A stretch of 64,000 bases of DNA, from the NCBI GenBank assembly GCA_973895155.1, contig OZ316896.1, forward strand, positions 248,001-312,000, written 5' to 3'. Position 1 is the stretch's first letter. Every line of letters begins with the position of its first letter. Made by a program: the position numbers and the translations under genes. Of this stretch, positions 1 through 37,852 are shown in pieces. Source of the DNA: Marsupella aquatica. Lineage: Eukaryota; Plantae; Marchantiophyta. Under the pieces are notes generated by a model. The model ran no database searches and was not told the DNA's origin. It was given only the letters and a program-made list of their open reading frames with translations.

Positions 1-1230
1 AGAAGTCGATCATCTCTCCTATGTGCGGGTTGGTGCAGGTGTTCCGGAAGAAGCCATTCTTCGTTGATGGCCCGGGGAACGACCGGAACTCCTTGTCAGG
101 CAAGGTCTTCCTGGTATCAACTTTGGTCTTATTGCCTATCGGCAAGCCAAACACTTCGGCAATTACCTTGGGAGTAAGATAGAAATCCTTCCCTATATCC
201 TCGTGCAATTGGTCTCGGGTTCCCATGACCCCACGAATTCTAATAGGTCTGACTCCGGTACCTCCGGCTTCAGCCATGGTAATCTTACAAAGGCCTCCAA
301 GCCGGATCCGGCCATGAAGCCTTGGTACTTCTTGGTCTGCATGGCCGTAAAGCATGCATCCTCCTCCCGTGCAAAATGTAGTTGCACCTCCACCGGTAGG
401 GTTGCCGCCCAGCCCTTCCAGGTGTCATCCCTGGTTGGAATGGCCTTGATGGGATCGACCTCCTCCTCTTCGGCTTCTCCCTGCCTCCTGCTCTGCTGCT
501 CGGCTGGCCTCTTTGGTGCCGCCGACCTCGTTCTTTTTGCCGGGGTGGCTTCATCGTTGACGGCCCCCTTCTTCTTCATCTCTGCTGCCGTGGAGGTTTC
601 TCCTAGCACCGTTGCCCGGGTCCACCTTTCCGTGCTACCCTTTAATTCCCAGTGTATGTCGTTGCAGTTCTTGATGGCCTCTCGGATGCCGACGACGCTG
701 TCTTTGCAAAACAGAAGATCGTCGAGTTGATTGGAAGTAGGCGTCCACAGGAACTCGTCCTTGATGAGTTTGCCTCCTAAGAAAGCCGTCTTGTGCAGCT
801 CCCACAATCGAGCGAGCTCCTGCCGTTCTCAAGCTGCCCTTTCTGACTCCTCGTCCTCGTAAGTCTTGATGTACTCAGTTGCCCGTTCGAACAGGCATCC
901 CCAAAAATGTGCCGCTTGATTGACGTTGCTCATACCCTCCTTAGGTCGATCGTCGGTATCTACTCTCTCCCCGAGTGCTTGCCTAAGCAGCTGACAGTAG
1001 TTGGCCTCCCGTAGTCGTCTGCCTAGTTCGTGCTCGCAAATGAGCCACCATCTCCTGCAAGCGCTCCTTACCCCTCTCCTCTGCCGGTCCTTCTTCCCGT
1101 TGATCCTTCCTAGCCGCCGACGCTTAACGCGCCCTAACCCTAATCGGGTTTTCACCCTCAGCCTTACCTCCGGCCTCTGCCCGGGTTCCATGGTTGCCCC
1201 TAATTGTTTATATTTTCCTTGTTTTGTCAC
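1..1230 (-). pseudogene. Disabled second copy of the LTR-encoded ORF
   Basis: ORFs 829..1230 and 193..807 match the N-terminus of 8441..12079; CGA>TGA stop at 829-831 and 1-bp deletion near 193. Confidence 0.9.
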
Positions 1231-1306
1231 TATACTAAGGTGTTCCTAGGGTGCCTTCCTGCTTTACCCACTTAACCGGCCGAGTGATTCCTGTCTAGGC
1301 ATCACA
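1..1306 (-). repeat. 3' LTR (partial, first 1306 bp)
   Basis: Near-identical to 10849-12155 (roughly ten differences by eye); starts TGTGATGC on minus strand immediately after the PPT. Confidence 0.93.
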
Positions 1307-4300
1307 TAGCTCCCCACTTAATTGTGAAGCGTCCTCGCGAACAACTTCATCTTCGTCCATATAGTATTTCTTGAGGCGGTCATAATGGATGCGAACTGGA
1401 TATACTTCTCCCGTAATGTTGGCCAATTGTACGGAGCCATTGGGGAACATCATGGTTACTCTAAAGGGTCCTAACCAGCGAGTGTAAAGCTTTCCTGGAA
1501 ACCTACTATACCTACTGTCATAAAGTAGCACAAGATCACCGGTATGAATACTAACTACTTTTAACCTTTTATCATACTGCTGCTTCATGATATTGTCTAT
1601 ATTCTACTCTCTCGGCTGAAATCATTCTCGCTTCCTCTAAAGCTTCTAACCTATATTCTCGCTCCTTTAGGCTCTCCTCCGCTGAGGCTCTTTCCTCAAT
1701 TGTAACTTGAAATGTCGGTATCTCAAGTTGCATGGGTACCAGGGCTTCTTGTCCAAAGGTTAAGAAGAAGGGTGTATGACCGGTAGTGGATTTATAGGCA
1801 AGATTGTAAGCAAAAACAGCAGCAAACAATTTATCATCCCAATCGAGTTTGTTCTGAGCTACTGTCTTGTTCAATATCTTTCCTATGATTCCGTTTGCTC
1901 GTTCTGTCAACCCGTTTGCCTTTGGATGGTAGGGAGTAGTAGGCCTATGTTTAACTAAATACTGCTCATTTAAACGACTAATTATATCATTCAAAAAATG
2001 GGTTCCTCTATCACTAACTAATTCTAGGGGTGCTCCATACCTGGTGAAGATCTGCTCATACATGAATCTAGCCGTCGTAATTGCATCATCCTTCGTTGTT
2101 GGTCTGGCCTCTACCCATTTAGTTGCATAATCCGTAGCCAGGATTATGTACTTGTTCCGTCGAGGGTGGGTCAGTGGTTTCAGAGGTCCAATGTAATCAA
2201 TACCCCACTTCTCGAATGGTGCCAGAGGTAGAATAGGGTGCAGTGGATGCCTGGTGGACGCCCTTGGTCCTCCCGCTCGTTGACAAGGATCGCATTGTTT
2301 GATAAACTGATAGACATCTTTGTGCAAGGTGGGCCACCAGTAACCGACATTTAATATCTTCTTAGACGTGGTTACTGGGGCAAAATGTCCTCCGGCCTCC
2401 TCTCCATGCATGGCCCGTAGGACTCGTTTTACCTCTCTCTTTTCCAAACACCTTTGAATCGTGCCGTTGATTCCATGCTTGTGCAGTATGCCTTTAATGC
2501 ACTGATACTGTCTGACCTTCCGCACAAAGACTGCGGCTTGCTCTCGGCTTAATCCTGGCTGTAATCTGGAAGTGCTGAGAAATTGTAAAATCTCAGGGTA
2601 CCATGTATCAGCTATTTCCACAACGAATAGCTCCTCGTCGGGGAATCGATCATCGATGCAATCCGTGGCAGGTTTACCTGTGATCCTTGAAAAGAAGTCG
2701 GCATTGGCATGTAACTTTCCCGGCTTGATCCTCAGCTCATAGTCAAACTCCTGTAATAGCAAAATCCATCTTGCTACTCTGCCTGTAAGGTCCGGCTTAT
2801 TGACTAGGTACTTCAAACTTTCATGATCAGTATGAAAGATTACCTTGTACCCTAGTAAATAATGCCTAAACTTTTTACAAGAATAAATGACTCCTAATGC
2901 TTCTCTTTCTGTGGTAGAGTAGTTCCGTTCGGCATCGGCAAGCTGACGGCTTGCGAAGTATATGGGATGGTCCCTTCCTTTCTCATCCAACTGACTTAGT
3001 ACTGAGCCAATACAGAAGCCCGAGACATCTACAAAAACATGAAAATCTTTGTTCCAATCCGGTGCTATCATGACTGGGGCCTCTACTAACATCTGCTTCA
3101 ATTCTACCACCGCTGTGACTCGTTCGGGTGTGGGTTCGAAGTCTGCTCCTGCCTTGAGCATGTTGGTTAATGGTAAAGCCAGCTTGGCAAAATCCTTGAT
3201 GAACCGGCGATAGTAACCAATGCATCCCAAGAAGGATCTTACATCCTTTATGTTCTTAGGTTGCATGATATCTAGCCATACTGCTAGCTTACCTTTGTCA
3301 ATCTCAATGCCCTTCCTTGATACCTTGTGACCTAGTAGCACCCCCTCGGTTACTGCAAAAAAACATTTATCTGGGTGTAACTTGAGACCCACCTCTCTAC
3401 ATCTCATGAAGGTTTTCCTGAGGTATTTAGCATGTTTCGATGCCTTCCCGAATACTGCAAAGTCATCAATGAAGATTTCCATGAACTTTCTCAAGTAATC
3501 ATGAAAAATGTTCACCATTAATCGTTGGAACATAGCTGGTGCGTTGCAGAGTCCAAACGACATACGATTGAAGACATAGATCCCCCATTCCGTGATGAAG
3601 GCCGTCTTGATTTGGTCTTCCTGCCGAATCCTGATTTGGTTATAACCAGAGTATCCATCCATGAATGAATATAGTTCATGACTGGCTACCATGTCTAGTA
3701 CCATATCAGTAAACGGTAAAGGAAAATGGTCTTTTAATGTCGCTTCATTCAGCTTCCTGTAATCCTGACAAACCCGGATCTTGGGTTTACCATCGGGTCC
3801 AGCTTTCTTGGGAACTATCACAATTGGAGACACCCAGTCTGAATGCAGGACTGGAGTGATGAATCCAGCTTCCACTAGTTTGTCGATTTCTGTTTTGACC
3901 AGCAGGGAATACTTCGGGTTCATCCTTCGAATTGGTTGTCGAAATGATTTGGCTCCTAACATGAGATCAATTCGATGTTCCCCTAGTGTTGGATCTACTC
4001 CCTTTAGATCTTGGTGACTCCATGCAAACACATCTTGAAATTCAATCAATAAGTCACTGATCTCTTTCTCGAGCTCAGGTGCTAGGTTTCTCCCTAAGTT
4101 CAGTTCTCTTCCCTCTCCTAAGTCGAGCTTCCGATATTGCCGTGCTTGGATCATATTAATCTGCTTCTTCAAATTCGGGTCCAGTTCGGCTTCCAGTCTC
4201 TCTAATCTCATACCTCCATAAACTGGGATCTCGGCTGGACTAGCCGAGTCGGTCCCTTCCTTGGTGTCCATAGATTGTCCCCTTACCGGTCTATTCGGTT

Positions 4301-4535
4301 TTGAATTAGTGGTCGGCTCCCCTTCCTGCCTTGGCTCTGGATCGTGTCTGTCCATCTCATCCACTTCTTGCTCCTGAGAGTTAGGCCGTTGTGCTCTCTC
4401 GGCTTCTAATAGGGCCTCAATTTGTTCTGCCCTCGTAATCGGCTTGTATGCCGATCCCTTGGTATTTAATTCCTTGCCGATGATCGATGGCGTTGTGGAC
4501 CCCGTCGGCTCTGCCACAACGCCTGCAGAAAATCC
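1295..4535 (-). CDS. pol: Pol (RT, RNase H, integrase) with a frameshift near 1580 separating the GPF C-terminal domain
   Basis: RT motifs FMDGYSGYNQI and FIDD; RNase H DVSGFCIGSVL..YSTTEREALG..DH; IN HHCC (H..GHF..CDPC) and D,D,E (DYIG, SDRGTHF, ERAN); ORF 1295..1588 has WLGPFRV motif. Confidence 0.95.
1307..1320 (-). other. Polypurine tract (TAAGTGGGGAGCTA) abutting 3' LTR
   Basis: Purine-rich run directly before the TG start of the repeat; lies inside the integrase C-terminal coding frame. Confidence 0.75.
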
Positions 4536-7459
4536 ACTGTCCCTGCTACTGCTCCCCACTTAGCCGTTTCATCCAATTGGTCTACATCCTTTACTTCCTC
4601 CGGAATTGCAGCTAAAAAGGTGGATTCTATTGTAAAGCAGTCCTCGACCTCTTCGTCTTCTTCTTCCAAGTCACCTTCCATTGGTTCTTGCCATAATCCG
4701 CTGGGGGGTACCTCTGGTCCAAAGACACCTTCTTCGGTTAGGTTAGTGAGGCATTCTAACCAACGTACTTCATCGGCTGACTCCAGTCCACTATCGTACC
4801 CGTCTACTTCCCTTATGCTTTTCCTACGGTCATCCTTAGTGTCCCAGGATACCGTGATAGAGGGGGTCCCGAAAGTGAACTGCTTTTTACCCCAATCTTC
4901 TATTACCTCGGCTAGGTACAGCCATGGCCTACCAATCAATAGCCGGAATGACGTAGGATTTACCGGCTTCATTACTACATAGTTAATGCTAAAGAAGATA
5001 CCTCCTATCTCTGTCTTGATGCCGGTTAACACTCCCGTCGGAATGACCTGATATCCATTGGCCATGTTCAACACTCTTCCAGTCATCTCCGGTGTTAGAC
5101 CCCACCCTTTTGCTGTTGAATCAATCATAATACATACCCCTGATCCTCCATCGATGGGTACCCGTAGTAATAATTCTCCTTGAATCATTAATGGTAATGC
5201 TGGAGCTCCTTGATCTTCTTCTATCATTAGTACGTCGGATCTGGTTGCTACCTTGGGTAATCTCGGCTTGCCGAGAATAGCCTTCCTTAATTGCTTCCGG
5301 AAGTACGGGCTATTTTTCAATAGTTGACCTACTGTTGCCGAGACTCTAGATTCTAGTACATCTTTAGCCAGGTCATAGGGAACAATCGGCTTCTCTTCTG
5401 GTGGTGTTTCCGTCTTGGGTTCGACCAGTTTTGCCACGCTAGTCTCCACAGCTGTTGGGTCTTCCGAAGCAAACAATGCTTTTGCTCGTTTTACATCCTT
5501 GGCAATGGCTTCGGTATTCTCCAGGGTTTCTAATTCTCTTAGTTGTTCCTTAACACTAGCCGTAACAGAGGGGTAGAACAACTTAGGATGATCTCGATTG
5601 AAGTCGCTATCTTGTGAAGGATTGGTTTCACTGGTGGGCTCATGGCTTACCTGTATTGCCGGAGCCCTCCCTTCTCCTTCTGTTGATGTTGACGAAGAGT
5701 CAATCCTTTCCTCCGTAACCTTCCCTTTATTTTTGGCCAGCCCATCCCACCTTTCCTTCCTTCTGGTAGATCGAGTAGAGACCCGGTAGCAATCATGATC
5801 TAAATCCTCCTCTGAGAAGGTTGATAGGGCTTCGGCCTCATCATCAGATGGTACGAACTCTGCCTCGGCATCCTCTTGCCATCCTAGTTCGATGTGGTTG
5901 ATTTGAACTCCTCCGGGGGTAGTACCTGGCGGTAAGATCTTGATCGGCAAAAGCTTATGATTTGCGGCCAGGCCTGCCAACCAAGTAGGACATTGCCCTA
6001 GCATATGACCTTCCTGTCGGCATCCCATACATAGCTGAGCTGGTTGTCCATCACCCTGTTTGCGTGCATTCGGGCATTCTCTAGCAAAATGGCCAGGTTG
6101 ACCACAATTATAGCACGCCGCAAATCTTTGCACATTCGGCCTAGGAGGTACTGACGGGTTCTGAATAATCCGAGGATACATCTCTCCTGGATTGTTCCTT
6201 AACCCTGACCACAGAGATGCAGGTCTGTTGGATAGGTCTCGTGCTCCAATCTCACTGATGCCGAAAACACTATCAGCGGCATCTCCCAAAAAGTACTCTA
6301 CTTCTCCCTGACATGGTCTGATCTCGGCCACATGCCGAACATGATTAGTATTAAGCTTAGGACACGCATCTTTATGGTGTCCGGTTTTATAACATAAGGC
6401 ACACCATACAAAGCTATCCTCCTGTACTACCTTCTTCTTTGGTTTTACCTCTGCAATGATAGCCTTAAGTTGCTCGGTAAGGGCTACGATGTTATCTGGT
6501 GGCTTAGCCTCCATCTTGACTTTCGTCTTCCCTCTCCTTCTGCCCTTCCTTTTCCTAGTTTTTTCTTCTTCAGAACTAGAAGATGACTCACTCTTGCTAC
6601 TCCCACTATCCGAGCTTGACTTATCACTTCTAGACTTCTTGGGATGTTTCTTCTTCTTATCTTTTTTCTTATGGGGTGATCCCTCCTCTGATGAGGAACT
6701 CTCAGACTTAAGCTGTTTCTTCCGGCTTGTGATATCTGCATTAATGTATAATTGAATATCCTTAATTGCTTCGGCTAAAGTCTCCGGGTTCTCCTTCCTA
6801 ATTGCAAAACTCATCTTCTGTGGCAAAGCATTCACCAACCATTGAAGTTGCATACCTTCAGATGCATTGGTCTTTGTACGTCTTACCAGTTTCTGAAAGC
6901 GTTGCAAGAACTTCCTGAAGGATTTGTTCTCCTTGAACCGAAGTTGTCCCAACTTCAGCACTGCTAGTTCTGAAGTTCCAATGGGTCGAAACTCCTTAAC
7001 AAAGAGTGTTTTGAAGATATCCCAGATGGCTTGATCTTCCACATCTAATGCTCTGTACCAAGGCCTAGCCTCACCCTTGAACAGGCCGGGAAGAATCTAC
7101 ATCTTGATGGCCGATTCTCCATTTGCTGTAGCAGTTCCCTCGAAATCATCCAACCATTCGTCCGGATCCTCATCTCCTCTCCCATGAAATGCCTTGTAAT
7201 GTATGCGCGACCGCTGGCTCAATCTGGTCCCTGGCCTCTCGTCTAGCCGTGCCTCTGGTTCCCCCATGTCGGTTGGAGACTCACTTCTCCTTACCGACTC
7301 TTCTTCTGGTATGTCTTCTTTGACGCCACTTCCAATTTCGGAGCTACCAGCTCTTTCTGCCCCTCTCAGTCGCTGTGTATCATGCCACCCGGCGAGCTGC
7401 TGCAGTCGAGCTCTCTCCCGTTGAATCACTCTTTCTTCCCTCGGCGTAAGGTCAGTCAT
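4466..7459 (-). CDS. gag: Gag-protease (one in-frame TAG at 7097-7099)
   Basis: 7097..7459 and 4466..7042 are the same frame; FHGRGDEDPDEWL gag-like start, three CX2CX4HX4C knuckles, aspartic protease IDGGSGVCIM..LLIGRPWL. Confidence 0.92.
4476..4535 (-). promoter_or_regulatory. Probable programmed -1 ribosomal frameshift signal (GGAUUUU + pseudoknot)
   Basis: G_GAU_UUU in gag frame at 4535-4529, 5-nt spacer, perfect 10-bp stem GGCGUUGUGG/CCACAACGCC, loop GCCGA pairs with downstream UCGGC; -1 frame is the pol ORF. Confidence 0.8.
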
Positions 7460-7506
7460 TACCTACGCTTCCGTTCTAACTTCATATCTCACGGCTTAAA
7501 AAATGC

Positions 7507-7524
7507 CCCCTCCATCTAGCGCCA
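7507..7524 (-). other. Primer binding site, tRNA-Asn-type (TGGCGCTAGATGGAGGGG)
   Basis: Follows LTR end CA + TTTT; matches complement of plant tRNA-Asn 3' end (CCCCUCCUUCUAGCG-CCA, from recall) with one mismatch. Confidence 0.75.
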
Positions 7525-7723
7525 AAAATGTGGTGCGTCCCATGGCTCCCTAAACCCAAGAAACCCCCCAGCTCAAGCCGATTCCCGCAGGTTTCGTGCT
7601 TGGCGAGGCCGTTTCCGCGGCTTAGCGGCATGGGACGTTGCTAACCTTCTACTACTACTATTAACATTTTACACACATATACTGGACAGATCCTTCATCG
7701 GGTCATGAGATACGTAGCCGGCC

Positions 7724-7730
7724 TAATATA
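7724..7730 (-). promoter_or_regulatory. Candidate LTR TATA box (TATATTA)
   Basis: TATA-like motif ~200 bp before LTR end, downstream of the LTR ORF stop; flanked by GGCC inverted repeat. Confidence 0.3.
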
Positions 7731-8440
7731 GGCCTTCCCCTGTCTTCCCCTGTCTTCTTGTTAGGTATGTTTGGATTCCGCCGCCGGAATGATCCCCAAT
7801 AGGCTTGGTTAAGCCGCTAAGACCTCTCTCAGCTCGACACATCCAACTCTCACTCCCCTGCTTACTTTCCTTCCTTCTGTTGATGTGGGCACTCTTCACA
7901 CAAGTTAATGCGACACACAAATAGCAAAATGACTCATTCTGACTGAGTCATACCATGCACTTGCCATACAAACAGTACATCTCATACACAAGTTCTGCGA
8001 ACTAAGCTGTGAGGCCAACTCTATTCAGCTCTTAGGCATGAGGAAACATGAATATACACAAGGGTCACTGTATGACTAACCGAGAGCTTCTCGTACTACT
8101 TGATCCCAGCCCGGCTGGTGCAAACTAAAAACTTGCTAAAGAAGAGGCCCTGAGCTCCCCGCTGCCCAGGTACTTATCCTGGTAGTGGATCCGCCATTCT
8201 TTGCATCGTAAGCCTAAACTACTTAACAGTAATCTACTTGCCCGAATCTACCTATGTACAGCAAGGCAGGAGCACAAGTGTTGCTCCTACCAGTGGGACC
8301 GCAATCCCACTAAGCTAAGTGTCAGGGCCGCTCCTGGTTCTGATCCTAATCCTAAACGTGGAGATCCGCGCCCGCCCTGCCCACTCACGCCTCCTCCCTC
8401 CACGTCCGCCCTCCCCAAAAGGAACGGCGCCCTTGCACCG

Positions 8441-11400
8441 TCACGACACCGGTGGTGGATCCTCAATGGACGCCCCCAACACTTCCTCCTCAGCCACTGC
8501 CGTTGGTCCGCCTACTGACAGATTACCTGCCCTTGACCGAGTCAACTCTCCATCGCCCTGACTGGGTCCACCTTCGGCTTCAGCCTCGACACCGGCCTCG
8601 GCAATACCCACGGCTTTGGCCTCAGCCACTCCCACGGCTTCGGCCTCCCCTTCCCCTAGGGTAGTTGGATCCTTAGCCGTGACCCTGTCTGGGGTCGGTG
8701 CTAGGTCTACCTCCTTGATCACCACGGCCTGTGAAGTCGTATTACTCCTTGACCCTGAAGGTTTCCACTTCTTCTTCATTGGTGGCTCGGCAGCTGGTCC
8801 CTTCCCCTTCCCACTTACTTCCGGCACTGGTGCAGTTGACGCGGCTTGTCCTTCGGCAATTACCACCCCTGGTAACTGGTTTGTCCCAACGGGAGATGGA
8901 CCTGCTGCAGCTAAGCTTTTAAATACTGCGGCTTGTTTCTTCAGCCGCTCTGTTTGGTTGTCGGCCCGCCGCTGTAGGTTCTCCATCTTCCTCGTGATTT
9001 CCTCCAACTCCTCTTGGGTTTCATCCAGGTCCTTACGTGCCCCCTCCAGCTCGTTTTTGGCCTCCTCCTGCTCCCTGTGGGCTTCCTCCAATTCCTTCTT
9101 CAAGGTAGCCCTCTCCTCCTGGGTTGCTCTTAGCTCCTTGTCGAGCTCTGCAATGATGACAGACTCCATCTGGTTCATCTTGGCGTAAGTCTGTTCGAGC
9201 ATCTCGTCCTTCTCCCTTAGGTCGGCCTTGAAGCTGGCCGTCAGGGACGCAAGCTCCTGCTGCAGCGCCATAATCCCTTGATAGGATTTCCCTAACTCGA
9301 CCTCCTTCTGCTCAAGGGCTCCGCGGATTTTCTCGAGCTCCCCTTTCAACGCCCATTCCTTTCTTTGGGTCTCCGCCATGGCCCGGCTGTTGGCTATTAT
9401 GTGGGCCTCCTCTGTATTCTTCAGCTCTTGCTTCCACTTCTCCCTCTCTTTGATCGTGTTGGCCAACTCTTCCTGCGTCTGAGTTAGTTTATCCTTGATA
9501 TTCTGATTATCAGCCTGCGCGGTGTCCAACTGCCCCTGCATGATGTTCAGCTCATGTCGTTTAATCCGCAGTTCATCTTGGGCTTTCTTGGCCGCCCTTA
9601 GATCTTCAATCTCGGCTTCCATCCTCCTAAGCCGCCGAATGAGCTCGTCCTTCTTGCTTCTCTCTAAAGCCACCGCTTCTTCTAATTGGTGCTTCTCCAA
9701 CTGCTCCCTATGGAAAAAGGGTCCTACCTCCAACTCCTCTCCAAAGATGCCGAGCGCAAGTTCCCCACACATCTCACCATACTCCATGGCTCTATTCTTA
9801 GCGTAGGTGGAGTAAGTAGAAGTGATCGGCATCGCCCATCGTGGCCTCTGCTCCCAAGCCGTCCTGCGGATCTCTTCAATCGTGGCTAGAGGTTTGCTTC
9901 CTTTTTCGGCTAGCCGCCTGATGTCCTCCGGCCAATCTCCTCCTGGTAAATCCTTTTCCTTAGCCAGGGCGGCCTCTTCCTCCTGCTTGATTCGCTCCTG
10001 AACTTCCTGCACCGTCTGTTTTATGCCGTCGAAGCTCGGGGGAGCAACATCTGGTGGGGGAGACTCAGGGCTACTCTGCTGGTTGGGGTCCCCTCGCACT
10101 ACCCTTGGAAGTGTGGGGACAAACCGGCCACAGGTCCTTACTCCTGGAACGTGATGGTCCGACCCATAGCCGGAATTATCATGGCTGCAGTCCTCCACTG
10201 CCTCCTCTACCTCTTGGGTTTCCGGCTTCTCCCTCTCCTCTTCGTCGGTAGGAGCTTCAGGCAATTCTGCCTCAGATTCGGAGCTTGAGGTTCCCACGTA
10301 CATTCGAACACCTGGCTTGGATTCCGGCCTGATTCTCTCCTTGTCTCCAGCAAAGGGGTTTTCTCTTGTGAGCCGGTGTAGGCCTACCTCTGTAGTAGTG
10401 TCCTGCATTGTTGCCGTTGCCGTTGTTGTTGCCAATGCCGATTTCTTTTCTTTCTCCAGTAGTTTCAGCAGACTCTGCATGCCTGGTTGCTGCATCGGCA
10501 AGTCCTCCTTCCCGGGCCTAAACACCTGCTCGATCGTAGGACTAACAGGTGGTTGAGGCTTCTCAGCCAACGGCCTCGGCGTTGGAGCTTCCTCGGGTGC
10601 CCTTACCTGCAGGGGAAGTACCGGGGCAAAAGTCTGACCTCTGGCATACCGACACAACAGCGGCATGTGATAGCCAAGCCGCGACACGCTCCCCATGCCG
10701 ATTACCTGCTGCTCCTCCTTTAAGATCTTCTTCAATTGGTTGAGGAGGTACCCGTTGTAGTCCCGGCTTGGGTCTGGCCTTTCTGCCAGATAGACCTGTG
10801 CCTTGCCGATCTCTGCCCTCGGCAAGTTACAATGCATGGTCACCCGCAAGAAGTCGATCATCTCTCCTATGTGCGGGTTGGTGCAGGTGTTCCGGAAGAA
10901 GCCATTCTTCGTTGATGGCCCGGGGAACGACCGGAACTCCTTGTCAGGCAAGGTCTTCCTGGTATCAACTTTGGTCTTATTGCCTATCGGCAAGCCAAAC
11001 ACTTCGGCAATTACCTTGGGAGTAAGATAGAAATCCTTCCCATATATCCTCGTGCAATTGGTCTCGGGTTCCCATGACCCCATGAATTCTAATAGGTCTG
11101 ACTCCGGTACCTCCGGCTTCAGCCATGGTAATCTTACAAAGGCCTCCAAGCCGGATCCGGCCATGAAGCCTTGGTACTTCTTGGTTTGCATGGCCGTAAA
11201 GCATGCATCCTCCTCCCGTGCAAAATGTAGTTGCACCTCCACCGGTAGGGTTGCCGCCCAGCCATTCCAGGTGTCATCCCTGGTTGGAATGGCCTTGATG
11301 GGATCGACCTCCTCCTCTTCGGCTTCTCCCTGCCTCCTGCTCTGCTGCTCGGCTGGCCTCTTTGGTGCCGCCGACCTCGTTCTTTTTGTCGGGGTGGCTT

Positions 11401-12079
11401 CATCGTTGACGGCCCCCTTCCTCTTCATCTCTGCTGCCGTGGAGGTTTCTCCTAGCACCGTTGCCCGGGTCCACCTTTCCGTGCTACCCTTTAATTCCCA
11501 GTGTATGTCGTTGCAGTTCTTGATGGCCTCTCGGATGCCGACGACGCTGTCTTTGCAAAACAGAAGATCGTCGAGTTGATTGGAAGTAGGCGTCCACAGG
11601 AACTCGTCCTTGATGAGTTTGCCTCCTAAGAAAGCCGTCTTGTGCAGCTCCCACAATCGAGCGAGCTCCTGCCATTCTCGAGCTGCCCTTTCTGACTCCT
11701 CGTCCTCGTAAGTCTTGATGTACTCAGTTGCCCGTTCGAACAGGCATCCCCAGAAATGTGCCGCTTGATTGACGTTGCTCATACCCTCCTTAGGTCGATC
11801 ATCGGTATCTACTCTCTCCCCGAGTGCTTGCCTAAGCAGCTGACAGTAGTTGGCCTCCCGTAGTCGTCTGCCTAGTTCGTGCTCGCAAATGAGCCACCAT
11901 CTCCTGCAAGCGCTCCTTACCCCTCTCCTCTGCCGGTCCTTCTTCCCGTTGATCCTTCCTAGCCGCCGACGCTTAACGCGCCCTAACCCTAATCGGGTTT
12001 TCACCCTCAGCCTTACCTCCGGCCTCTGCCCGGGTTCCATGGTTGCCCCTAATTGTTTATATTTTCCTTGTTTTGTCAC
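8441..12079 (-). CDS. LTR-encoded accessory protein (~1200 aa; basic N-terminus, PMD/plant-transposon-protein-like region, long coiled coil)
   Basis: Uninterrupted 1212-codon ORF; first ATG at 12040 in strong context GCAACCATGG; motif IYGKDFYLTPKVIAEVFGLP resembles PMD/Athila-ORF domains; E/K/Q/L-rich heptad region in the C-terminal third; no obvious transmembrane segment. Confidence 0.85.
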   Translation of the reverse strand: MTKQGKYKQLGATMEPGQRPEVRLRVKTRLGLGRVKRRRLGRINGKKDRQRRGVRSACRRWWLICEHELGRRLREANYCQLLRQALGERVDTDDRPKEGMSNVNQAAHFWGCLFERATEYIKTYEDEESERAAREWQELARLWELHKTAFLGGKLIKDEFLWTPTSNQLDDLLFCKDSVVGIREAIKNCNDIHWELKGSTERWTRATVLGETSTAAEMKRKGAVNDEATPTKRTRSAAPKRPAEQQSRRQGEAEEEEVDPIKAIPTRDDTWNGWAATLPVEVQLHFAREEDACFTAMQTKKYQGFMAGSGLEAFVRLPWLKPEVPESDLLEFMGSWEPETNCTRIYGKDFYLTPKVIAEVFGLPIGNKTKVDTRKTLPDKEFRSFPGPSTKNGFFRNTCTNPHIGEMIDFLRVTMHCNLPRAEIGKAQVYLAERPDPSRDYNGYLLNQLKKILKEEQQVIGMGSVSRLGYHMPLLCRYARGQTFAPVLPLQVRAPEEAPTPRPLAEKPQPPVSPTIEQVFRPGKEDLPMQQPGMQSLLKLLEKEKKSALATTTATATMQDTTTEVGLHRLTRENPFAGDKERIRPESKPGVRMYVGTSSSESEAELPEAPTDEEEREKPETQEVEEAVEDCSHDNSGYGSDHHVPGVRTCGRFVPTLPRVVRGDPNQQSSPESPPPDVAPPSFDGIKQTVQEVQERIKQEEEAALAKEKDLPGGDWPEDIRRLAEKGSKPLATIEEIRRTAWEQRPRWAMPITSTYSTYAKNRAMEYGEMCGELALGIFGEELEVGPFFHREQLEKHQLEEAVALERSKKDELIRRLRRMEAEIEDLRAAKKAQDELRIKRHELNIMQGQLDTAQADNQNIKDKLTQTQEELANTIKEREKWKQELKNTEEAHIIANSRAMAETQRKEWALKGELEKIRGALEQKEVELGKSYQGIMALQQELASLTASFKADLREKDEMLEQTYAKMNQMESVIIAELDKELRATQEERATLKKELEEAHREQEEAKNELEGARKDLDETQEELEEITRKMENLQRRADNQTERLKKQAAVFKSLAAAGPSPVGTNQLPGVVIAEGQAASTAPVPEVSGKGKGPAAEPPMKKKWKPSGSRSNTTSQAVVIKEVDLAPTPDRVTAKDPTTLGEGEAEAVGVAEAKAVGIAEAGVEAEAEGGPSQGDGELTRSRAGNLSVGGPTAVAEEEVLGASIEDPPPVS

Positions 12080-12155
12080 TATACTAAGGTGTTCCTAGGG
12101 TGCCTTCCTGCTTTACCCACTTAACCGGCCGAGTGATTCCTGTCTAGGCATCACA

Positions 12156-12659
12156 GACATAAACGAGGCAGCTGCACATGTGACTTGCCAAACTCTGGCT
12201 GCACATGGAGTGGAGGCAGATGTCGTGGTAACAAATTTGGTGGCAGGGTTGGAGAAGAGAGTTAGTGGGACTATAGATGTGCTAGTTTTCAACCCACCTT
12301 ATGTTCCAACCTCGGAAGATGAGGTGGGTATGGCAGGTATAATATCATCATGGGCAGGTGGACACCGCGGACGAACTGTGATAAATCGCATGTTGGCTAT
12401 TGTTGACGAGCTTTTGTCAAGTAAAGGTTTGTTTTACCTCCTTACTCTCACCGCCAACAATCCTGGTGAGATCTGCCAGATCATGAAGAAGAAAGGGTTC
12501 GCTTCACGTATAGTTATTCAGAGGTCAACAGAGGAGGAGAGCTTGCATGTCTTGAAATTTTGGAGAGAAAACCTAGATGACCTGCCTGAGAATGGTTCCC
12601 CGCCCACTCTTCAAACATCTTTGTCTGCCAAGCTAGCCCGCCTTGCTTTTTGGAGATAA
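12156..12659 (+). CDS. HEMK2: HemK2/N6AMT1 (MTQ2-like) methyltransferase, 3' portion, interrupted by the Gypsy insertion
   Basis: Frame reads DINEAAAHVT..DVLVFNPPYVPT..SWAGGHRGRTVI..FYLLTLTANNP directly from the LTR boundary; NPPY motif. Confidence 0.88.
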   Translation, partial: DINEAAAHVTCQTLAAHGVEADVVVTNLVAGLEKRVSGTIDVLVFNPPYVPTSEDEVGMAGIISSWAGGHRGRTVINRMLAIVDELLSSKGLFYLLTLTANNPGEICQIMKKKGFASRIVIQRSTEEESLHVLKFWRENLDDLPENGSPPTLQTSLSAKLARLAFWR

Positions 12660-15443
12660 TGGGGGTGTCTCAGATTACGACTTGGGCTTTGGACACTGGT
12701 GATGACTTTGAAAGCCACACATTTCTTCGAAGCACCACCGCTGACCTGTGCTTGGACCTCTCATGTACTTGATGGAGCAACATGCCTTAAGGTCGGCATC
12801 TGTCCGACTTTGGTGCAGCTCAAAGGTCAAGGTAATCACAGTCACAGCCCCGCCCTTCCTCTCCGTGATATCAATGATGCGTCGATAAGTAGCTCTGACA
12901 AAGATAGCCTCTTTTTTGTAATATATTCTTGTACAGTTGCTCTAGCGGTTGTAAGACTGACAGCTGCTGCTGTGATCATATGTCTATACTTGATTCAGTG
13001 GCGGATTCTAGGCATCACCGATGAAAACAGAACATTTAACCATTAGCGCTGGAATCCTTGGCTCAACACAACCCTTTCTTAAGTAAGACTGTTAGGCATG
13101 TGTATTTTTTAAGTCTGATGGTTGAATTCCAAACTCACACGAAGAATTCAAGGCACTGCTGGGTCGAAATGTGAAAACCTATGGAGGATAAAAATATGAT
13201 AGTCCAATACATTGTACCTCACCTATTGTGTTGACCGTTACAAACAGGGTTTCGCTTCCAAGGGTGGCTATTCTATTTGTATTTACTCACAAGGACGTGC
13301 AGCAATGTAGAAGAGGCGGGTTGTCATCCTTTGCAAGTAGTCAAAGAATGATTTGAGAACGGCAAGCTGGGAGATCGTCAATCAAATGAATGTCTGCGAT
13401 TGCTGCATATACATTGCCTCGTTATTTTTAGCTGTGTCTCATACGGATTGCAGTATGCCAGAGCTGTAGCACTACCTAAACGTATATTAAGAGATCTTGT
13501 GAGAAATCAGAAACAATTGAAGAAACACTCACCCGCCATAAAAAGAAAATAACCGGAAGAAAATAAACTTTACAGGTGGCCTTGCGTTGCATCCTTGCCA
13601 ATGATGTATGTTTGTTGTTCAAACCGCTAGTACGACCACAGTCCTGTTCCCAGCCTACAATTTCATAGCGTCCTTCCCCCACGAGAGTCGTGCATCATGT
13701 GTAAGGAAGTGCTTGCTGCAGTCTATGCATAGCTTCGATAGTTCCTCACGCAGGTTTAAACCGTTTTCACAACTACATACTTTTGTGATCCCCTCCCTCT
13801 CTGCAGAGGGCTGGTTGTGCTTGGGGAATAAATGTAGCTGGGAAATAGGGACCTCAAATGTAGTGGCGTAGATAAGTAACCTGGATAAAGGGTAACCCTG
13901 TAGAGTTTTCCATGACATGCCGTCAGAGAAAACCAGAAGATGGCAAGGAATGATCAAGGGATGGTTGGCCTATTGCTTCTGGTGTTCTTTCTTTGTCTTT
14001 GGAAAGAGCAGGCTGATCGACCAGAAGCTTCATCCCACTGGGCCAACGAGGTTTTCTGTTAGTTGCCCTTGTTTCATGCTCTCGTACTGACCATGCAATG
14101 ATACAGGGAAAGACTGTACAAGAGGGACGACTCTATATCACTAGGGTAAGTCATCCAGGGTCCCATACTGTATTTTTATGCTTTCTATATGGTCCGTCGA
14201 GGAGGCGAATCTGCTGTCTAAGCACCGTATTGACCAGTTAGAGGATAATGGTTACTCTCTGCACAAGCACCTTCGTTCCTTTCGCGTACTTCATGTCGTA
14301 ATCCACAATTGCGTACAACACTGATTTCATCTGCTATGTAAGGAGCATATACTTGCTTACAAGTCATAATGCACGAGTGCGTACAACACGATTTCATGTG
14401 CTATGGAAGGGGCATATACTTCTATAAAAGTCTTAACTAGATAAGCTTTATTGCATGCTTGTACTCGACTAGATGTATCCTTTTCCGCAGTACATGGAAT
14501 CAAATGACGAGTATACGTCTCTCTAAGTTCACACCAGGGCAACCAAGAGACGTCTGCCTGCCACGGAGAATTTACCGTCTGTGATGTGACTGCAGAGCGG
14601 GCAGTAGACTGGGATTTTTGGGTGTTCCAAGATCTTCAGAACCTACCGTTCAGAAACATGTTCTTTAATTTTACGAGATTCATCTTATTGTCAATGGTTT
14701 TTACCATCACACTGGGGTACATGTTTTCAGGACACAGATTCCTTTGGTATGTCCTCTTTTCGGAGGTTGTACTGAGTGTTTGTCAGGCACTTTGACAAGC
14801 AAGGGGGTACGAAGCTCATGTCCTGGCTGTGACATACCTCCTAGAAAACTACGAAGGAGCCTCCTAGATTGGCATCTGTCATAAAACCGAACGAGTGTTA
14901 GAGTATGAAATCTGTGCCAACCATCCTGGCTGTAGAACTGAAAGCTGGCTGGCAGTTGCGCAGTTGCTTGCATGATCGGAACAAAGGCCACGGCAAAGTA
15001 TCTCCCAAATAGATTTAGAGTTATCGTCGTCAGTGGGTTTGAGGTGTGTAGGCAACATTTTCAACCGGAGAAGGTCATTATGTGGGCAGCCACCTGACTA
15101 GTTTACATAAACCTCGATCACACACCTGGCTTGCCTAGATGTTCTTATCAAAGATGGAAATTGTTTCTCAATAGATAGGCAGCTGATTATAAACAACCAT
15201 ACAAACCTTTATCAAATTTGTGTGAGTAGTGTCTCGTCGGATATGAAAGCTCCCTCATTAGTCGATTCTGAGCCTTGTCTACACTTGGGTACCCGAGCCA
15301 TGTCCCTGTGTATGTACTTAAAGTTGATGTGTCTTCAGATGGAGGAGAGCTCTGAGATGAGAAAATGCTGAAAGAAAGTACCCAGAAGCATCAACGACAG
15401 AGATGCACCACTTAAGCACTGAGGTGAAGAACAGAGGGGGTGG

Positions 15444-24200: not shown

Positions 24201-26192
24201 TCACCAGTAATCACCACAAGAACACACGCCATCTGAAAAATGGTGAAAGCGATTTGCATCCCTCGCTATAATCTTGCGCCCTGTCACCTTAGAGATCAAC
24301 TTCGTTGCTGTATGGCAATCTGGACACACCCTAAGGTTCTTCGTTACACGAATTGGTTCTCCTCGAGGTATGTGAATCAGTCCGTAAGCAATAGCCAACT
24401 TCTCACTATGAGAGCAAATAGCTAGTTCTTTATCCTCCTCATTCATATCATGCAACACAAGCCGTGTATCAGGAATGTAGCCTTCGGCTTTCAGTTTTTT
24501 AATCAATTTATTGAGCTCAATATATATCGCCTTCGCTTCCGGATGAGATGTATCCCCTACCACAAATTCATGGGTCTTGTTATCAACTTCAATCCAGCTA
24601 CGCCCTGGCTCCTTCCGAACACCTCTCGTTCGCATCATATTGCGCACCAAAGACACGTCCTCCCACTTGCCAGCTGCAGCATAGATGTTGGAGAGAAGCA
24701 CATATGGAGCGGCATTACTGGGTTCCAACTTGAAAAGCTCGTTAGCAGCAAGTTCGCCCAGCTCCACGTTACCGTCAGATCTACAAGCTCCAAGCAAGGC
24801 TCTCCAAGTTACTACCGTTGGCTCAATTGGCATGTCATGAATGAAGTCCTTTGCTTCCTCCAAGTGCCCCGCCCGCCCAAGAAGATCCACCATGCAGGTA
24901 TAATGCAAAATGTTAGGCTCTATGCCATAATCTTGCGTCATAGCTGAAAAGAGTCTATGACCGTCATCAACAAGGCCTCCGTGACAACAGGCTGATAACA
25001 GTGCCACGAATGAATGACTGTCGGGCTTCACACCGTCTGCGGTCATTTCTCTGAAGAGTTCCAGGGCTTCATTCCCGCATCCATGTTGCGCAAGTCCACC
25101 GATCATTACAGTCCAGGCGACTACATCGCGTTTCTCCATTTTGTCAAAAACTTGTCGGGCGTCAACTATACTGCCACTCTCCGCATACATGTGAACCAGT
25201 GCCGTGCCCACACGTAAATCCGACTCCAGTCCCGCTTTCGTAGCATGGCCATGAACGTCCTTCACCCACTCCAAAGCACCCACACTTGCAGATGCATTCA
25301 GGATGCCCAGATAAGTGATTACATCTGGTTCGAAGCCTTCCCGTCTCATTTGGAGGAACAGCCGATATGCTTCCATACCATCACCACGTTCTGCATATGC
25401 TCGAATGATAACACTCCAGGTAATGACATTTCGATTGGTCAACTTTTCAAAAACTTTCCTTGCCTCAGTGATGCGTCCACATTTTGCATACATCTGTAGG
25501 AGGGCAGTCCCTACACGCACATTTGATTCAAACCCAGCATCTCGAATATGCACATGAACTTCCTTCCCCCATTTTAGAGCTAATGGGTTGGAACACGCCT
25601 TAAGGATGCTCAGATATGTGATCTCATTAGGCTGCACACCTTCTTGGCGCATTTGATTGAAAAGTTCTAGTGCAAATTCCGCATGGTGACTCTTAGCATA
25701 TCCCGCAATCATGTTGGTCCAAGTAATAACACTTTTCTTGTCAAGTTGATCAAAAACTTGACGTGCATCCAACAATCCTCCGCATTTGATATACACATTC
25801 AAGAGCGTTGTTGCCACAAATGGATTCTTATCAATTCCACTCTGGGTGATGCAATCGTGGACCTGCTTGGCCGCTGAGAGGTCTTTCTTTTGTAAGCACA
25901 TTTGCAGAACTTTAGCATAAGTGTGCCAGTCTATAGTAATGCCTCGTTGTAAATGTGCCTTCAAAACAGCAATTGTTTCACTTGTGGTACCAGCATCATG
26001 CATGTGCCGACTGCCATTCCCTTGTGCAGTGACTTGAGACCAATCTCGCGTCCCATGTTTAACTTGCGATTGTAATCTGGATTCAGTAATTAAATTCGCA
26101 CTTCCCTTAACCCATGCCGGAGTTGACCATGCATCCACCAAAAGTGCTTTTCTTGTCGTCTTATGAATGAACTCAGGTGCTCTGGGCTTCCT
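24201..26192 (-). CDS. PLS-class PPR-E-DYW organellar C-to-U RNA editing factor (main exon; true start probably in upstream exons)
   Basis: PLS repeats, PG box PGRSWIE, HSEKLA and CPDCH zinc-deaminase motifs, terminal CSCGDYW; in-frame CAG acceptor at 26195-26193. Confidence 0.96.
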   Translation of the reverse strand, partial: RKPRAPEFIHKTTRKALLVDAWSTPAWVKGSANLITESRLQSQVKHGTRDWSQVTAQGNGSRHMHDAGTTSETIAVLKAHLQRGITIDWHTYAKVLQMCLQKKDLSAAKQVHDCITQSGIDKNPFVATTLLNVYIKCGGLLDARQVFDQLDKKSVITWTNMIAGYAKSHHAEFALELFNQMRQEGVQPNEITYLSILKACSNPLALKWGKEVHVHIRDAGFESNVRVGTALLQMYAKCGRITEARKVFEKLTNRNVITWSVIIRAYAERGDGMEAYRLFLQMRREGFEPDVITYLGILNASASVGALEWVKDVHGHATKAGLESDLRVGTALVHMYAESGSIVDARQVFDKMEKRDVVAWTVMIGGLAQHGCGNEALELFREMTADGVKPDSHSFVALLSACCHGGLVDDGHRLFSAMTQDYGIEPNILHYTCMVDLLGRAGHLEEAKDFIHDMPIEPTVVTWRALLGACRSDGNVELGELAANELFKLEPSNAAPYVLLSNIYAAAGKWEDVSLVRNMMRTRGVRKEPGRSWIEVDNKTHEFVVGDTSHPEAKAIYIELNKLIKKLKAEGYIPDTRLVLHDMNEEDKELAICSHSEKLAIAYGLIHIPRGEPIRVTKNLRVCPDCHTATKLISKVTGRKIIARDANRFHHFSDGVCSCGDYW

Positions 26193-26485
26193 CTGTCAGC
26201 ATCACAACCCACGCTCAGATCTGGAAAGCCTGACTGATACAGAATAAAATCTAGGAGATTGCACGTGGTGCAACGTGCTTGTTTTTATTTCTTAAGGATT
26301 ATAATTTACAGCGAGATTTCTACGATGAAGTTCAGAAATAGATAGCAGGCCGGTAAGTCTCTTGAGTCTTACAGGTCGGATGCATGCCTACCTCCGTCCA
26401 AAGATGTATTTTCTTTTCTCCCTTGCTCTGCTGTGATCTTTGGTAACTTATAAAAGTTGTATGAATCCTTTCAGAGTAATGGCCT

Positions 26486-35886: not shown

Positions 35887-36489
35887 TCACTGACATTGAG
35901 GACACAACCATGATCCACTAGGAATCATGTGCAAGGGTGGTGTCAAACACGACATGTGCCATCCTCTAGAACACCGATCACAAATCAACATAGAAGCTAC
36001 TCCTTGAGCAGACCCACACAACATACACTTCAAGCCAGCACGAACATGTGCCAAGCTTGGATCCACAGTACCATCAATGTTTGGAAGATGACATGGCGCA
36101 CAATTATGTACATGATCCTTCCAAACCATACCATCACGTCCTTCCAACATAAGGACTCCAAAAGGCAACACTTCACGCACACGTAAGATTGTCCGCCCTG
36201 CGGTCACATCAAGCGTCGTTGGTGCTGTCTGCTGCAAATAAACATAATCGCCAGGATGAAATCTTCTAATCCTCGTGCGATAACCTCCTCCATGAATAGT
36301 AGCATACCGCAAAGTATCACGATGTTGGGCAATAGCAAGGTTGTCAAAGGCCATGGGCATGACTCTCTCAAAACCTTGTGCCCTCTTTGAACAAACCTTG
36401 ACCCAAACATCTGGATCATCCAAATCCACAACAGTTGCAACATCATGACGAATAGCTGTTGGCAAATGTGGCTCTCTACCATAGAGCAA
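35887..36489 (-). CDS. Integrase C-terminal region ending in a C4HC3 PHD finger
   Basis: CMLC..MLICDRC..GWHMSC..PSGSWLCPQC at ORF end, continuous with integrase LYGREPHLP. Confidence 0.88.
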   Translation of the reverse strand: MLYGREPHLPTAIRHDVATVVDLDDPDVWVKVCSKRAQGFERVMPMAFDNLAIAQHRDTLRYATIHGGGYRTRIRRFHPGDYVYLQQTAPTTLDVTAGRTILRVREVLPFGVLMLEGRDGMVWKDHVHNCAPCHLPNIDGTVDPSLAHVRAGLKCMLCGSAQGVASMLICDRCSRGWHMSCLTPPLHMIPSGSWLCPQCQ

Positions 36490-37852
36490 GAAATAAGGTG
36501 AGAAGGATGCAAGTGATGCTTATCGACTGAAATGGTAGCCCATAGCTAACCAAGGTAGTTGGAGATCTCAGTCTCCCAAATGACCAACCTGCAAGCCATA
36601 CTTATGCAATCCTCTCTTTACAGTTTGTACAACTCTCTCTGCCAATCCAACTGCCTCAGGATGATCACGAGAATTAGTACGATGATCAATCAGAGCTTGC
36701 TCACACAAACCCTCAAAATCTCCATAGAATTCCGTGCCCTGATCAGTCAACACCTCAGTTGGTGCTCCAAAGTGACTGAGTACTCGATCCAAAAATGTGG
36801 TAGCCACTCCTCCACTAGCTTTATCTAGCAATGCCACTAGTTCAATCCACTTGGAGAAGTGCTCCACCATTATAACCAAAACATACCGATTATGACGTTG
36901 GGTAAGAGGCAATGGACCAGCAAAGTCCAAACTCCATCGATATCCCAAACCCATGATCGACAACGGATGCAACTGGGGAGTGGGAGCATTGAACAATGCT
37001 CACACTCAATCACAAACCACACACTTAGCTATCAATTGTTGGACATCAGTGTGCATACCACGCCACCAATACTGTGTCTGCAGCAAGCTATATTAAGTGC
37101 GCTTCACACCAAAGTGCCCTACTCTTCGTGCGCATGTCGCACCAAATGTACTCGTTGTGACGGTTTTGGTACAACCAACACCTTCCCATCACGGAGTACC
37201 CTCAAAAGATGATTTCCTTCCCATCGAAATCTCTTGGCTCGTTGTAGAACCCTATCACGCTCCTTAGCATCAACATTGCCACCAACGGAGCCCCCACGTA
37301 GATATTCCAACACTCTCACATCGTTGTGAATATCTTGCTGTCCAAAAACTATATCACCAACATCCAGATCTGAAGACTCATCGGCTACTCCATCCAATGA
37401 AGTAGAGTCTACAGATCCACTGCATGTTGGCACCCAACAAAGGAAAGCAGATGCATGCCATTCTGGCACCATCTCCTTATCTGTCTCGTCATGCCATCGG
37501 GCTCCAGTCTCATCCTCTTGACTGGTACATGGATTGTGGCTCAACCCATCTGCATCCAAATTCACTTTTCCAGGTCTATGCACAACCTGAAAATCATACT
37601 CCTACAACAACAATGCCCATCGTGCAAGCTTCCCTCTAAGCTTGTTAGACTCCATTAACCACTTGAGAGGTTGATGATCAGTGATCAAGGTGAATAAATT
37701 ACCAAACAAATAGCAACGGAAATGTGCCACAGCCCACACTGTTGCCAAACACTCTCCCTCATAAGAGCTGTACTTAGCCTCTGCTAAATTGTTGGATCTA
37801 CTAGCATACGCCACAACAAACTCATTCCCCTCATCATCCTTCTGAGTCCCAA

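Follow-up and report, generated by a model that had tools for sequence, protein, structure and literature searches.

The stretch of DNA analysed here, 64,000 nt of contig OZ316896.1 from the liverwort Marsupella aquatica (hereafter the window, to which all positions refer), carries on its minus strand a Ty3/gypsy retrotransposon with a long terminal repeat (LTR) of 4,627 bp, and we place with high confidence an open reading frame (ORF) of 1,199 codons inside this LTR. According to a structure model, one domain of the encoded protein (P0001) very probably has a fold related to that of VANC proteins and the plant mobile domain (PMD), which makes a sequence-specific anti-silencing function plausible. 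The LTRs of plant elements are regarded as non-coding, and solo-LTR formation as the route by which a host removes the genes of an element; here the leftover LTR would keep a gene of ~1,200 codons. What the extra ORFs of plant retrotransposons do is a long-standing question (PMC11963269, PMC6317226, PMC7264820, PMC11728184). The element links such an ORF structurally to VANC21, whose anti-silencing activity is proven, and supplies a candidate target motif; two related elements predict different motifs.

Structure of the element and position of the ORF

The element has the domain order gag-protease-reverse transcriptase (RT)-RNase H (RH)-integrase (Table 1), and Pfam matched neither a chromodomain nor a second RNase H in its pol. 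The 5' LTR opens with TGTGATGC at 12155 and closes with GCACCACA at 7529, its inverted ends agreeing at 7 of 8 positions. It is followed by TTTT and by the primer-binding site (PBS) TGGCGCTAGATGGAGGGG, which we take to be of the tRNA-Arg type. The internal part is nearly all gag-pol, and the whole element would be ~15.5 kb long. Beyond the frameshift in pol the frame stops ~90 codons on, at a polypurine tract (PPT). This purine tract (~1320-1308) adjoins a second TGTGATGC at 1307, and from there the sequence 1307..1 is 99.2% identical to 12155..10849 (9 substitutions and one 1-nt gap) as far as the window edge. Thus the first 1,307 nt of the second LTR are inside the window, and public sequencing runs stand in as evidence for the rest. 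In the 3' LTR the ORF copy is interrupted twice: codon 121 (window 831) is a stop, and one nucleotide is deleted at window 194. Due to the stop in gag and the frameshift at the end of integrase, this insertion (the "window copy") is young but defective.

Among the 16 public runs listed, 14 contain the stretch or part of it (six of them at least half), and none is recorded as an RNA run. Six different runs were compared, and depth ratios over window 1-13000 were obtained for X1, X2, X5 and X6. With the reservation, to be counted against our placement of the ORF, that summed contig depth is not copy number and that its pattern alone was used, the median depth in ORF bins was 3.55 (X1), 3.92 (X2), 2.34 (X5) and 3.56 (X6) times that in gag bins, and the tail/ORF ratios in the four runs (0.95, 1.3, 1.77 and 1.03) put the LTR tail close to the ORF. 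In X1, X2, X6 and X7, contigs with the empty site cover the right flank, stop matching at 12152 and continue in unlike sequence. Furthermore, one X6 contig matches 11886-12155 and then runs into 106 unlike letters, i.e., an independent insertion ending at the same base, and two X2 contigs join other LTR sequence to 7529. Taken together, the PPT-LTR motif, the depth pattern, the empty sites and the independent insertion place both LTR ends, with the ORF between them. The boundaries that the initial annotation had drawn from PBS, inverted ends and PPT therefore hold (ends 12155 and 7529, PBS 7524-7507, PPT ~1320-1308), and its location of the ORF within the LTR is borne out by the repeat alignment and the public-run contigs. 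Its statement that the start of the ORF is repeated in the second LTR is right for the first 1,307 nt, in which that copy is broken.

In X5, contigs share the PPT and the first 6-8 nt of the LTR (window 1300-1345) and then diverge, as sister families with other LTRs would. At window 9869, 11154, 11415 and 11951, several contigs join differing places of the LTR, with short sides.

The LTR-borne ORF and its protein

The frame is open from 12094 to 8441 (1,217 codons from stop to stop; first ATG at 12040) and the ORF takes up 78% of the LTR, in sense to gag-pol. The other five frames over the ORF contain 23-61 stops each, and by composition the chance of such an open frame is ~3e-23. The uninterrupted sense frame of the initial annotation is confirmed with a corrected length, as its 1,212 codons (~80% of the LTR) count from an upstream GTG.

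Domain I (Table 1) had no usable match in the ESM Atlas. A basic bipartite stretch resembling a nuclear localization signal (NLS) is found by pattern at aa 206-222, and the coiled-coil segment matches the ATG16 coiled coil weakly (E 0.008). The remainder of P0001 consists of acidic and proline-rich linkers and basic NLS-like stretches. No transmembrane helix was found in P0001 (top 19-residue hydropathy 0.96). The initial annotation was correct in its long coiled coil (~aa 781-1045, free of proline) and in the lack of a transmembrane helix. As for its description "PMD-like, nuclear, anti-silencing rather than Env", the VANC21-type predicted fold and the missing helix give it substantial support; a caveat is that Pfam gave no match of P0001 to PF10536, PF20167, PF03078 or DUF1985 (at E <= 1 for PF10536 and DUF1985).

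Sequence differences between copies were available as 40 listed out of 221, with 25 of the 40 in the ORF. Ten of these are peculiar to the window copy (three synonymous), as expected after insertion. The other 15 segregate between copies and just 6 of them are synonymous, which is a point against a conserved gene; from codon 86 onwards 4 of 6 of these listed changes are synonymous, compared with 2 of 9 in the codons before it. The Arg/Lys-rich first ~86 codons may be untranslated: the homologs begin at residues 89-91, only ~20 nt separate the TATA-like box from the first ATG, and of the 9 listed segregating changes within codons 56-83, 7 are non-synonymous. That the ORF is a real gene is better supported by the open frame together with homologs at 25-57% identity.

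Predicted VANC21-like fold of domain II

The region aa 248-480 was modelled from a 57-row alignment with a predicted local distance difference test score (pLDDT) of 83.4 and a predicted template-modelling score (pTM) of 0.82; folding without the alignment gave pLDDT 34.5. Among the Foldseek rows listed for this model, the VANC21-DNA complex reached a template-modelling (TM) score of 0.42, and all others <=0.18. Aligned with VANC21 (structures 9lnj and 9lnk of the Protein Data Bank, PDB) by VIA-align, domain II gave Z 8.8 over 209 aligned residues with a root-mean-square deviation (rmsd) of 4.2. In an independent search of 48,161 PDB representatives, the VANC21-DNA complex was the sole chain with Z >= 2 (Z 8.7, 204/233 residues, rmsd 4.1).

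Several observations weaken this match. Foldseek found nothing at E <= 0.001 in the PDB or in the viral structure library, and its E value for VANC21 was 8.9; the Z of 8.7 is barely above the typical best chance Z of the tool (7-8); and the match concerns a predicted model at 7-8% identity. Sequence searches of the PDB returned coiled-coil or chance matches only. Weighing both sides, we regard a relationship of the predicted fold of domain II to VANC/PMD as very likely. For the VANC domain itself, a resemblance to the plant mobile domain found in MAIN/MAIL1 has been reported (bioRxiv 2024.09.27.615353, PMC13547354).

Homologs, lineage and origin of the gene

A HMMER search of aa 61-490 against 1.84 billion representatives yielded 22 matches, conserved in two blocks (~89-246 and 248-471). 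One of them, a repetitive bacterial adhesin (P0186), was spurious and dropped before alignment. A word-index protein search with aa 60-520 gave no match. Three homologs of P0001 are from the liverwort Calypogeia fissa, which also provides the closest RT matches (71% and 69% identity); both findings make a leafy liverwort the likely host. In an RT-RH tree (FastTree, midpoint-rooted, no named REXdb references; 101 sequences aligning over at least 280 residues, drawn from 80 loci and from 30 of the 120 proteins listed), the window element groups with Calypogeia (support 0.999), inside a group with the loci L001 and L019 (0.966), L001 branching outside the group of the window element and L019 (0.91-0.97). 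This bryophyte/fern group is sister to seed-plant elements with ATHILA or Transposase_32 ORFs. The window element is Athila-like, and we do not assign it to Athila, Tat or Phygy.

L001 is a related element in a collapsed contig (pol identity 56% to the window element) with the order pol, PPT-like tract, sense ORF of 742 aa, PPT, ~1-kb LTR, Asp-type PBS and gag; pol-ORF-PPT-LTR is the ordinary layout in reviews (PMC7264820, PMC6317226). In L019, pol is directly followed by a PPT-TG motif, a CGGAA/ACGCGT-rich spacer, a TATA box and a ~600-aa homologous ORF (L019 2352-4978), and the contig ends 215 nt past this ORF; judging from this order, L019 may be a second case of a gene inside an LTR. The L019 protein family comprises 46 clusters, and locus scans for the window ORF or the L019 family revealed no confirmed relative.

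Pairwise BLAST found no significant match between P0001 and the ORFs of L001 and L019; the link comes from profiles alone. A domain II profile (23 rows, i.e., the domain and its direct matches; 200 shuffles per tested ORF) matched the L001 ORF with E 7.8e-9 (20.6 bits; best shuffle 0.4 bits) and the L019 ORF with E 1.8e-7 (16.2 bits; best shuffle 1.4 bits), and hhalign gave a probability of 95.4%. By these profile comparisons the LTR ORF is homologous to the sense extra ORF of L001.

In the simplest history, an accessory gene of the 3' internal region would have been incorporated into U3 once the plus-strand start (PPT and attachment site) lay directly after pol. A G tract just 3' of the ORF stop (Table 1) is possibly a relic PPT; that it does not stand out above shuffles (42/200 and 87/200) counts against this, and at position 8416 inside the tract most copies differ from the window in the public-run contigs. 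The 912-bp LTR tail that follows the ORF is likely to hold the poly(A) region and the ordinary promoter/R/U5, and the TATA-like box near the LTR start is a candidate promoter of the LTR ORF.

A candidate CG motif of the element

VANC21 counters the silencing of VANDAL transposons in a sequence-specific manner: it binds a short motif particular to its family, and the density of this motif matters (PMC5735166). Because each VANC protein co-evolves with a short motif of the element that encodes it, such a motif was sought in the window element. The top over-represented 6-mers were CGGCTT (31 vs 7.7 expected) and TCGGCA (26 vs 6.9), which led to the consensus (T)CGGCW(T/A) as a candidate binding motif. 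CGGCW occurs 48, 22 and 22 times in ORF, gag and pol, respectively, vs means of 20.6, 8.5 and 11.6 after synonymous-codon shuffling, and 0 of 1000 shuffles reached the observed count in any of the three. The element contains 0.23 CGGCW sites per CpG vs 0.06 in 51 kb of host flank; in 49 other loci the median was 0.043 and the maximum 0.147. Since the motif had been picked from the whole element, the search was repeated per region, and the same 5-mers ranked top in ORF, gag and pol each searched alone.

When each of the 31 loci with enough coding sequence was represented by its own top CG motif, L019 (CCGGAA, z 13.7) ranked first, L001 (AGCGC, z 11.9) second, and the next locus had z 6.9; for the motif of the window element, z was 8.2 in gag+pol. 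There are also arguments against a VANC-type target motif. In the window ORF alone z is 6.0, below the best unrelated locus (6.9). The motif-rich trio of window element, L001 and L019 comprises the only DNA loci of the bryophyte clade that were tested, so that clade and ORF are confounded. Moreover, the sites in the window element are dispersed, on both strands and mostly coding, whereas VANC motifs form same-orientation arrays in non-coding DNA (PMC5735166), and the three non-coding parts of the window element contain neither a tandem array nor an enriched k-mer.

L001 carries four AGCGCTA(CA) clusters (L001 637-686, 5069-5125, 6748-6797 and 7992-8025) in coding and non-coding DNA, which are nearer to VANC-type arrays than the motif of the window element.

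Possible function and alternative explanations

We consider it an even question whether the LTR-borne protein with its predicted VANC/PMD fold is a sequence-specific anti-silencing factor for its own family, and, by analogy with VANC, whether it would act via the TCGGCW motif, to which we give similar chances. In the proposed mechanism, TATA-like box, ORF and U-rich tail would make each LTR, solo LTRs included, a stand-alone trans-acting gene. The protein, located in the nucleus, would form oligomers via its coiled coil and occupy TCGGCW sites throughout the members of the family, thereby keeping them unmethylated or free of Polycomb marks. Such protection would account for the retention of CG dinucleotides in this single context, synonymous positions included. 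VANC and Athila domains have been predicted as coiled-coil pentamers (PMC13547354), and PMD-C, which resembles the VANC DUF1985 domain, opposes Polycomb (bioRxiv 2024.09.27.615353). If this is true, counter-defence of the VANC type extends from dicot DNA transposons to retrotransposons and bryophytes.

More tentatively, and in our opinion possible rather than probable, every LTR of the family (solo LTRs too) would be a self-contained gene for a VANC-type anti-silencer whose target motif is written in synonymous positions throughout the element; the Athila-type 3' "env-like" ORFs would then be sequence-specific anti-silencers of an age reaching back to early land plants, and every family would have a CG motif of its own, readable from sequence. 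Comparisons with the Athila-type ORFs do not favour this extension: the domain II profile did not rise above shuffles against ATHILA/Transposase_32 ORFs of 6 loci, and hhalign against ORFs of these types gave 16% (E 0.0016) and 0.4%. ESM Atlas leads of 0.87-0.88 to ATHILA/Transposase_32 families are, with the weak hhalign value of 16%, the whole link.

Somewhat unlikely, in our view, is that layout and fold hold and the protein binds DNA or RNA of the element for another purpose (e.g., to activate transcription, target chromatin, choose integration sites or chaperone particles), with another cause for the CG motif such as context-dependent methylation or binding of a host factor. A common fold alone says nothing on function. 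PMD proteins have been reported to promote silencing (PMC5418596) and to oppose it (bioRxiv 2024.09.27.615353), the arrangement of the motif is unlike that of VANC arrays, and the functions of extra ORFs are stated as unknown (PMC11963269, PMC7264820, PMC11728184). However, a host mutational bias should extend to the flanking DNA, which has just 0.06 sites per CpG, and three elements with the domain and three differing motifs are what is expected of a co-evolving pair of protein and motif.

Concerning the position within the LTR, the sequence comparisons argue for U3 as the probable site of the ORF. In the alternative, which we regard as unlikely, the ORF would be in R or U5: the TATA-like box (12063-12056) would start the genomic RNA, with the ORF as first cistron and gag-pol expressed from a spliced or downstream-started RNA. 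This is suggested by the sole TATAAA of the LTR being ~95 nt from the LTR start and by the clear TATA box before the ORF in L019 as well. It agrees less well with L001, whose homologous ORF is 3'-internal and converts most simply into U3, and whose whole LTR equals the 912-bp tail in size; in addition, with an R or U5 of ~4 kb the first strong-stop DNA would have to be very long, or transcription would have to read through the poly(A) region of the ORF. Such a placement changes the location and not the protein, and it is compatible with either function.

Very improbable is that the short tail (~8400-7529) is the true LTR and the ORF an ordinary 3'-internal one, the window copy being rearranged, tandem or mis-assembled. 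The end of the second LTR outside the window, the PPT-like tract behind the ORF stop and the CACA that the host target shares with the LTR end (a 4-nt junction ambiguity) would fit it. It conflicts with an ORF depth about equal to that of the tail and well above that of gag, with the left element end, which corresponds exactly to the first base after the PPT in the other copy, with the independent insertion in another organism ending at the same base, and with the motif before 1307, which is the true PPT-LTR junction in L001. Nor was a loose contig end, as expected of an element terminus, found near 8400 among the rows listed, most rows being outside the listing.

An Env-like fusion or movement protein, as might be imagined from the long coiled coil and from homologs in the pol-PPT position of env-like ORFs, is extremely improbable for a protein with NLS-like basic stretches and no hydrophobic helix (maximum 0.96), whose predicted fold matches a DNA-binding protein and had no match at E <= 0.001 in the viral structure library.

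Comparison with known systems

Protein-coding sequence in a retroviral LTR is represented by sag of mouse mammary tumour virus and the overlap of lentiviral nef. These U3-coded genes resemble the ORF inside the LTR of the window element in that coding sequence of the LTR is duplicated in each replication; they are much smaller, unrelated and belong to animal retroviruses. Plant elements with LTRs of 3-5 kb and extra ORFs (Retrosat2/RIRE3 with ORF0, Ogre, Retand with TRP28) are similar in these two respects, and their LTRs are treated as non-coding, with the extra ORFs either preceding gag-pol or following pol, before the 3' LTR (PMC3485330, PMC11963269, PMC6317226).

The Athila-type 3' sense ORFs (aORF-3S/eORF-3'F; PF03078 ATHILA ORF-1, PF20167 Transposase_32) are comparable as sense extra ORFs of non-chromoviruses with a single RNase H and a neighbouring RT, and the L001 homolog occupies their classic position between pol and PPT. 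The window ORF, in contrast, is beyond a PPT that directly follows pol, inside the LTR, and it is ~2x longer, with an additional N-terminal domain and a coiled coil of 260 residues. A second PPT after pol, which Athila reportedly has, was not confirmed in the papers checked. The Athila-type PBS corresponds to tRNA-Asp (TGGCGCCGTTGCC type, PMC2844528); that of L001 is of the Asp type, whereas that of the window element is not. The Tat clade (TatI-III, Ogre, Retand) is defined by an additional RNase H (PMC6317226), which the window element does not have. Phygy/Selgy elements are recognised by their RT clade and are short, with an internal part of nearly nothing but polyprotein; the internal part of the window element is nearly all gag-pol, but its total length would be ~15.5 kb.

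VANC of VANDAL (MuDR) shares with P0001 the predicted fold of aa 248-480, a long coiled coil, variable low-complexity regions and an enriched family-specific motif. It differs as the product of a DNA transposon described as dicot-specific (PMC13547354), the window element being a liverwort retrotransposon; identity is 7-8%, the window motif is dispersed on both strands of coding DNA, and the function of P0001 is a prediction only. The plant mobile domain (PF10536; PMD-A of gypsy elements; host MAIN/MAIL1/MAIL2) is similar via its reported structural similarity to VANC, and the window ORF has no PF10536 match. PMD-A encoded by gypsy elements has been described from angiosperms (PMC5418596), and no report of a PMD-A inside an LTR was found in the literature searched.

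It is already known that gypsy elements may have extra ORFs, long LTRs and PMD-type domains (PMC3485330, PMC11728184, PMC12844716, PMC11963269). As the initial annotation had supposed, no plant element with a gene inside its LTR was found in the literature searched, subscription papers and supplements being largely outside this search, and nothing in the same literature ascribed a VANC-like fold together with a cognate motif to an ORF of a retrotransposon. The available text of PMC1142308, PMC2844528, PMC12885004, PMC1560396 and PMC6673714 holds no precedent for an LTR-internal plant gene.

Host flank and other features of the window

Table 1. Features of the element and its host flank, in positions of the 64,000-nt window.
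Feature	Position	Strand	Basis
5' LTR, 4,627 bp, TGTGATGC...GCACCACA	7529..12155	-	Repeat ends and public-run contigs
TATA-like box, sole TATAAA of the LTR, ~95 nt from LTR start	12056..12063	-	Pattern scan
ORF inside the LTR, 1,199 aa (P0001)	8441..12040	-	Open frame; 22 phmmer matches, one spurious
Conserved domain I, ~aa 89-246	11303..11776	-	Covered by 4 homologs
Conserved domain II, aa 248-480, predicted VANC21/PMD-type fold	10601..11299	-	Structure model
Long predicted coiled coil, ~aa 781-1045 (~260 residues)	8906..9700	-	No proline, 42% charged residues
PPT-like G tract just 3' of the ORF stop, possible relic	8405..8432	-	Best LTR site for both L001 PPT-type motifs
Non-coding LTR tail, 912 bp	7529..8440	-	Sequence; size like the ~1-kb LTR of L001
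PBS TGGCGCTAGATGGAGGGG	7507..7524	-	Sequence after the LTR end and TTTT
gag-protease frame with in-frame stop at 7099-7097	4466..7460	-	Pfam Retrotrans_gag, zf-CCHC
pol (RT, RNase H, integrase), frameshift near 1593	1340..4559	-	Pfam
Conserved PPT/attachment motif directly behind pol	1308..1345	-	87% over 45 nt to the L001 PPT-LTR junction, E 5e-8
3' LTR, leaving the window at position 1; ORF copy broken	1..1307	-	Alignment to the 5' LTR
CGGCW sites (98), consensus (T)CGGCW(T/A), candidate binding motif	1308..12155	both (45 and 53)	k-mer enrichment
3' half of N6AMT1/HEMK2-like coding exon broken by the insertion	12156..12659	+	E 1e-34 to N6AMT1

The insertion broke an N6AMT1-like coding exon of the host. 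The empty N6AMT1-like site is present in X1, X2, X6 and X7, with third-position differences in X6 and X7, and a second gene copy or polyploidy might explain why the insertion was tolerated. The empty-site contigs extend 4 nt into the LTR end (CACA, window 12152-12155), i.e., target and LTR terminus match over 4 nt; this match could be due to chance, target preference or repair-mediated insertion.

Farther into the flank, an intact PLS-type pentatricopeptide repeat (PPR) gene with E, E+ and DYW deaminase domains is encoded on the minus strand (24201-26195). The same strand carries at 36451-37847 a decayed RNase H-integrase relic of another gypsy element, with 31-36% identity to the pol of the window element.

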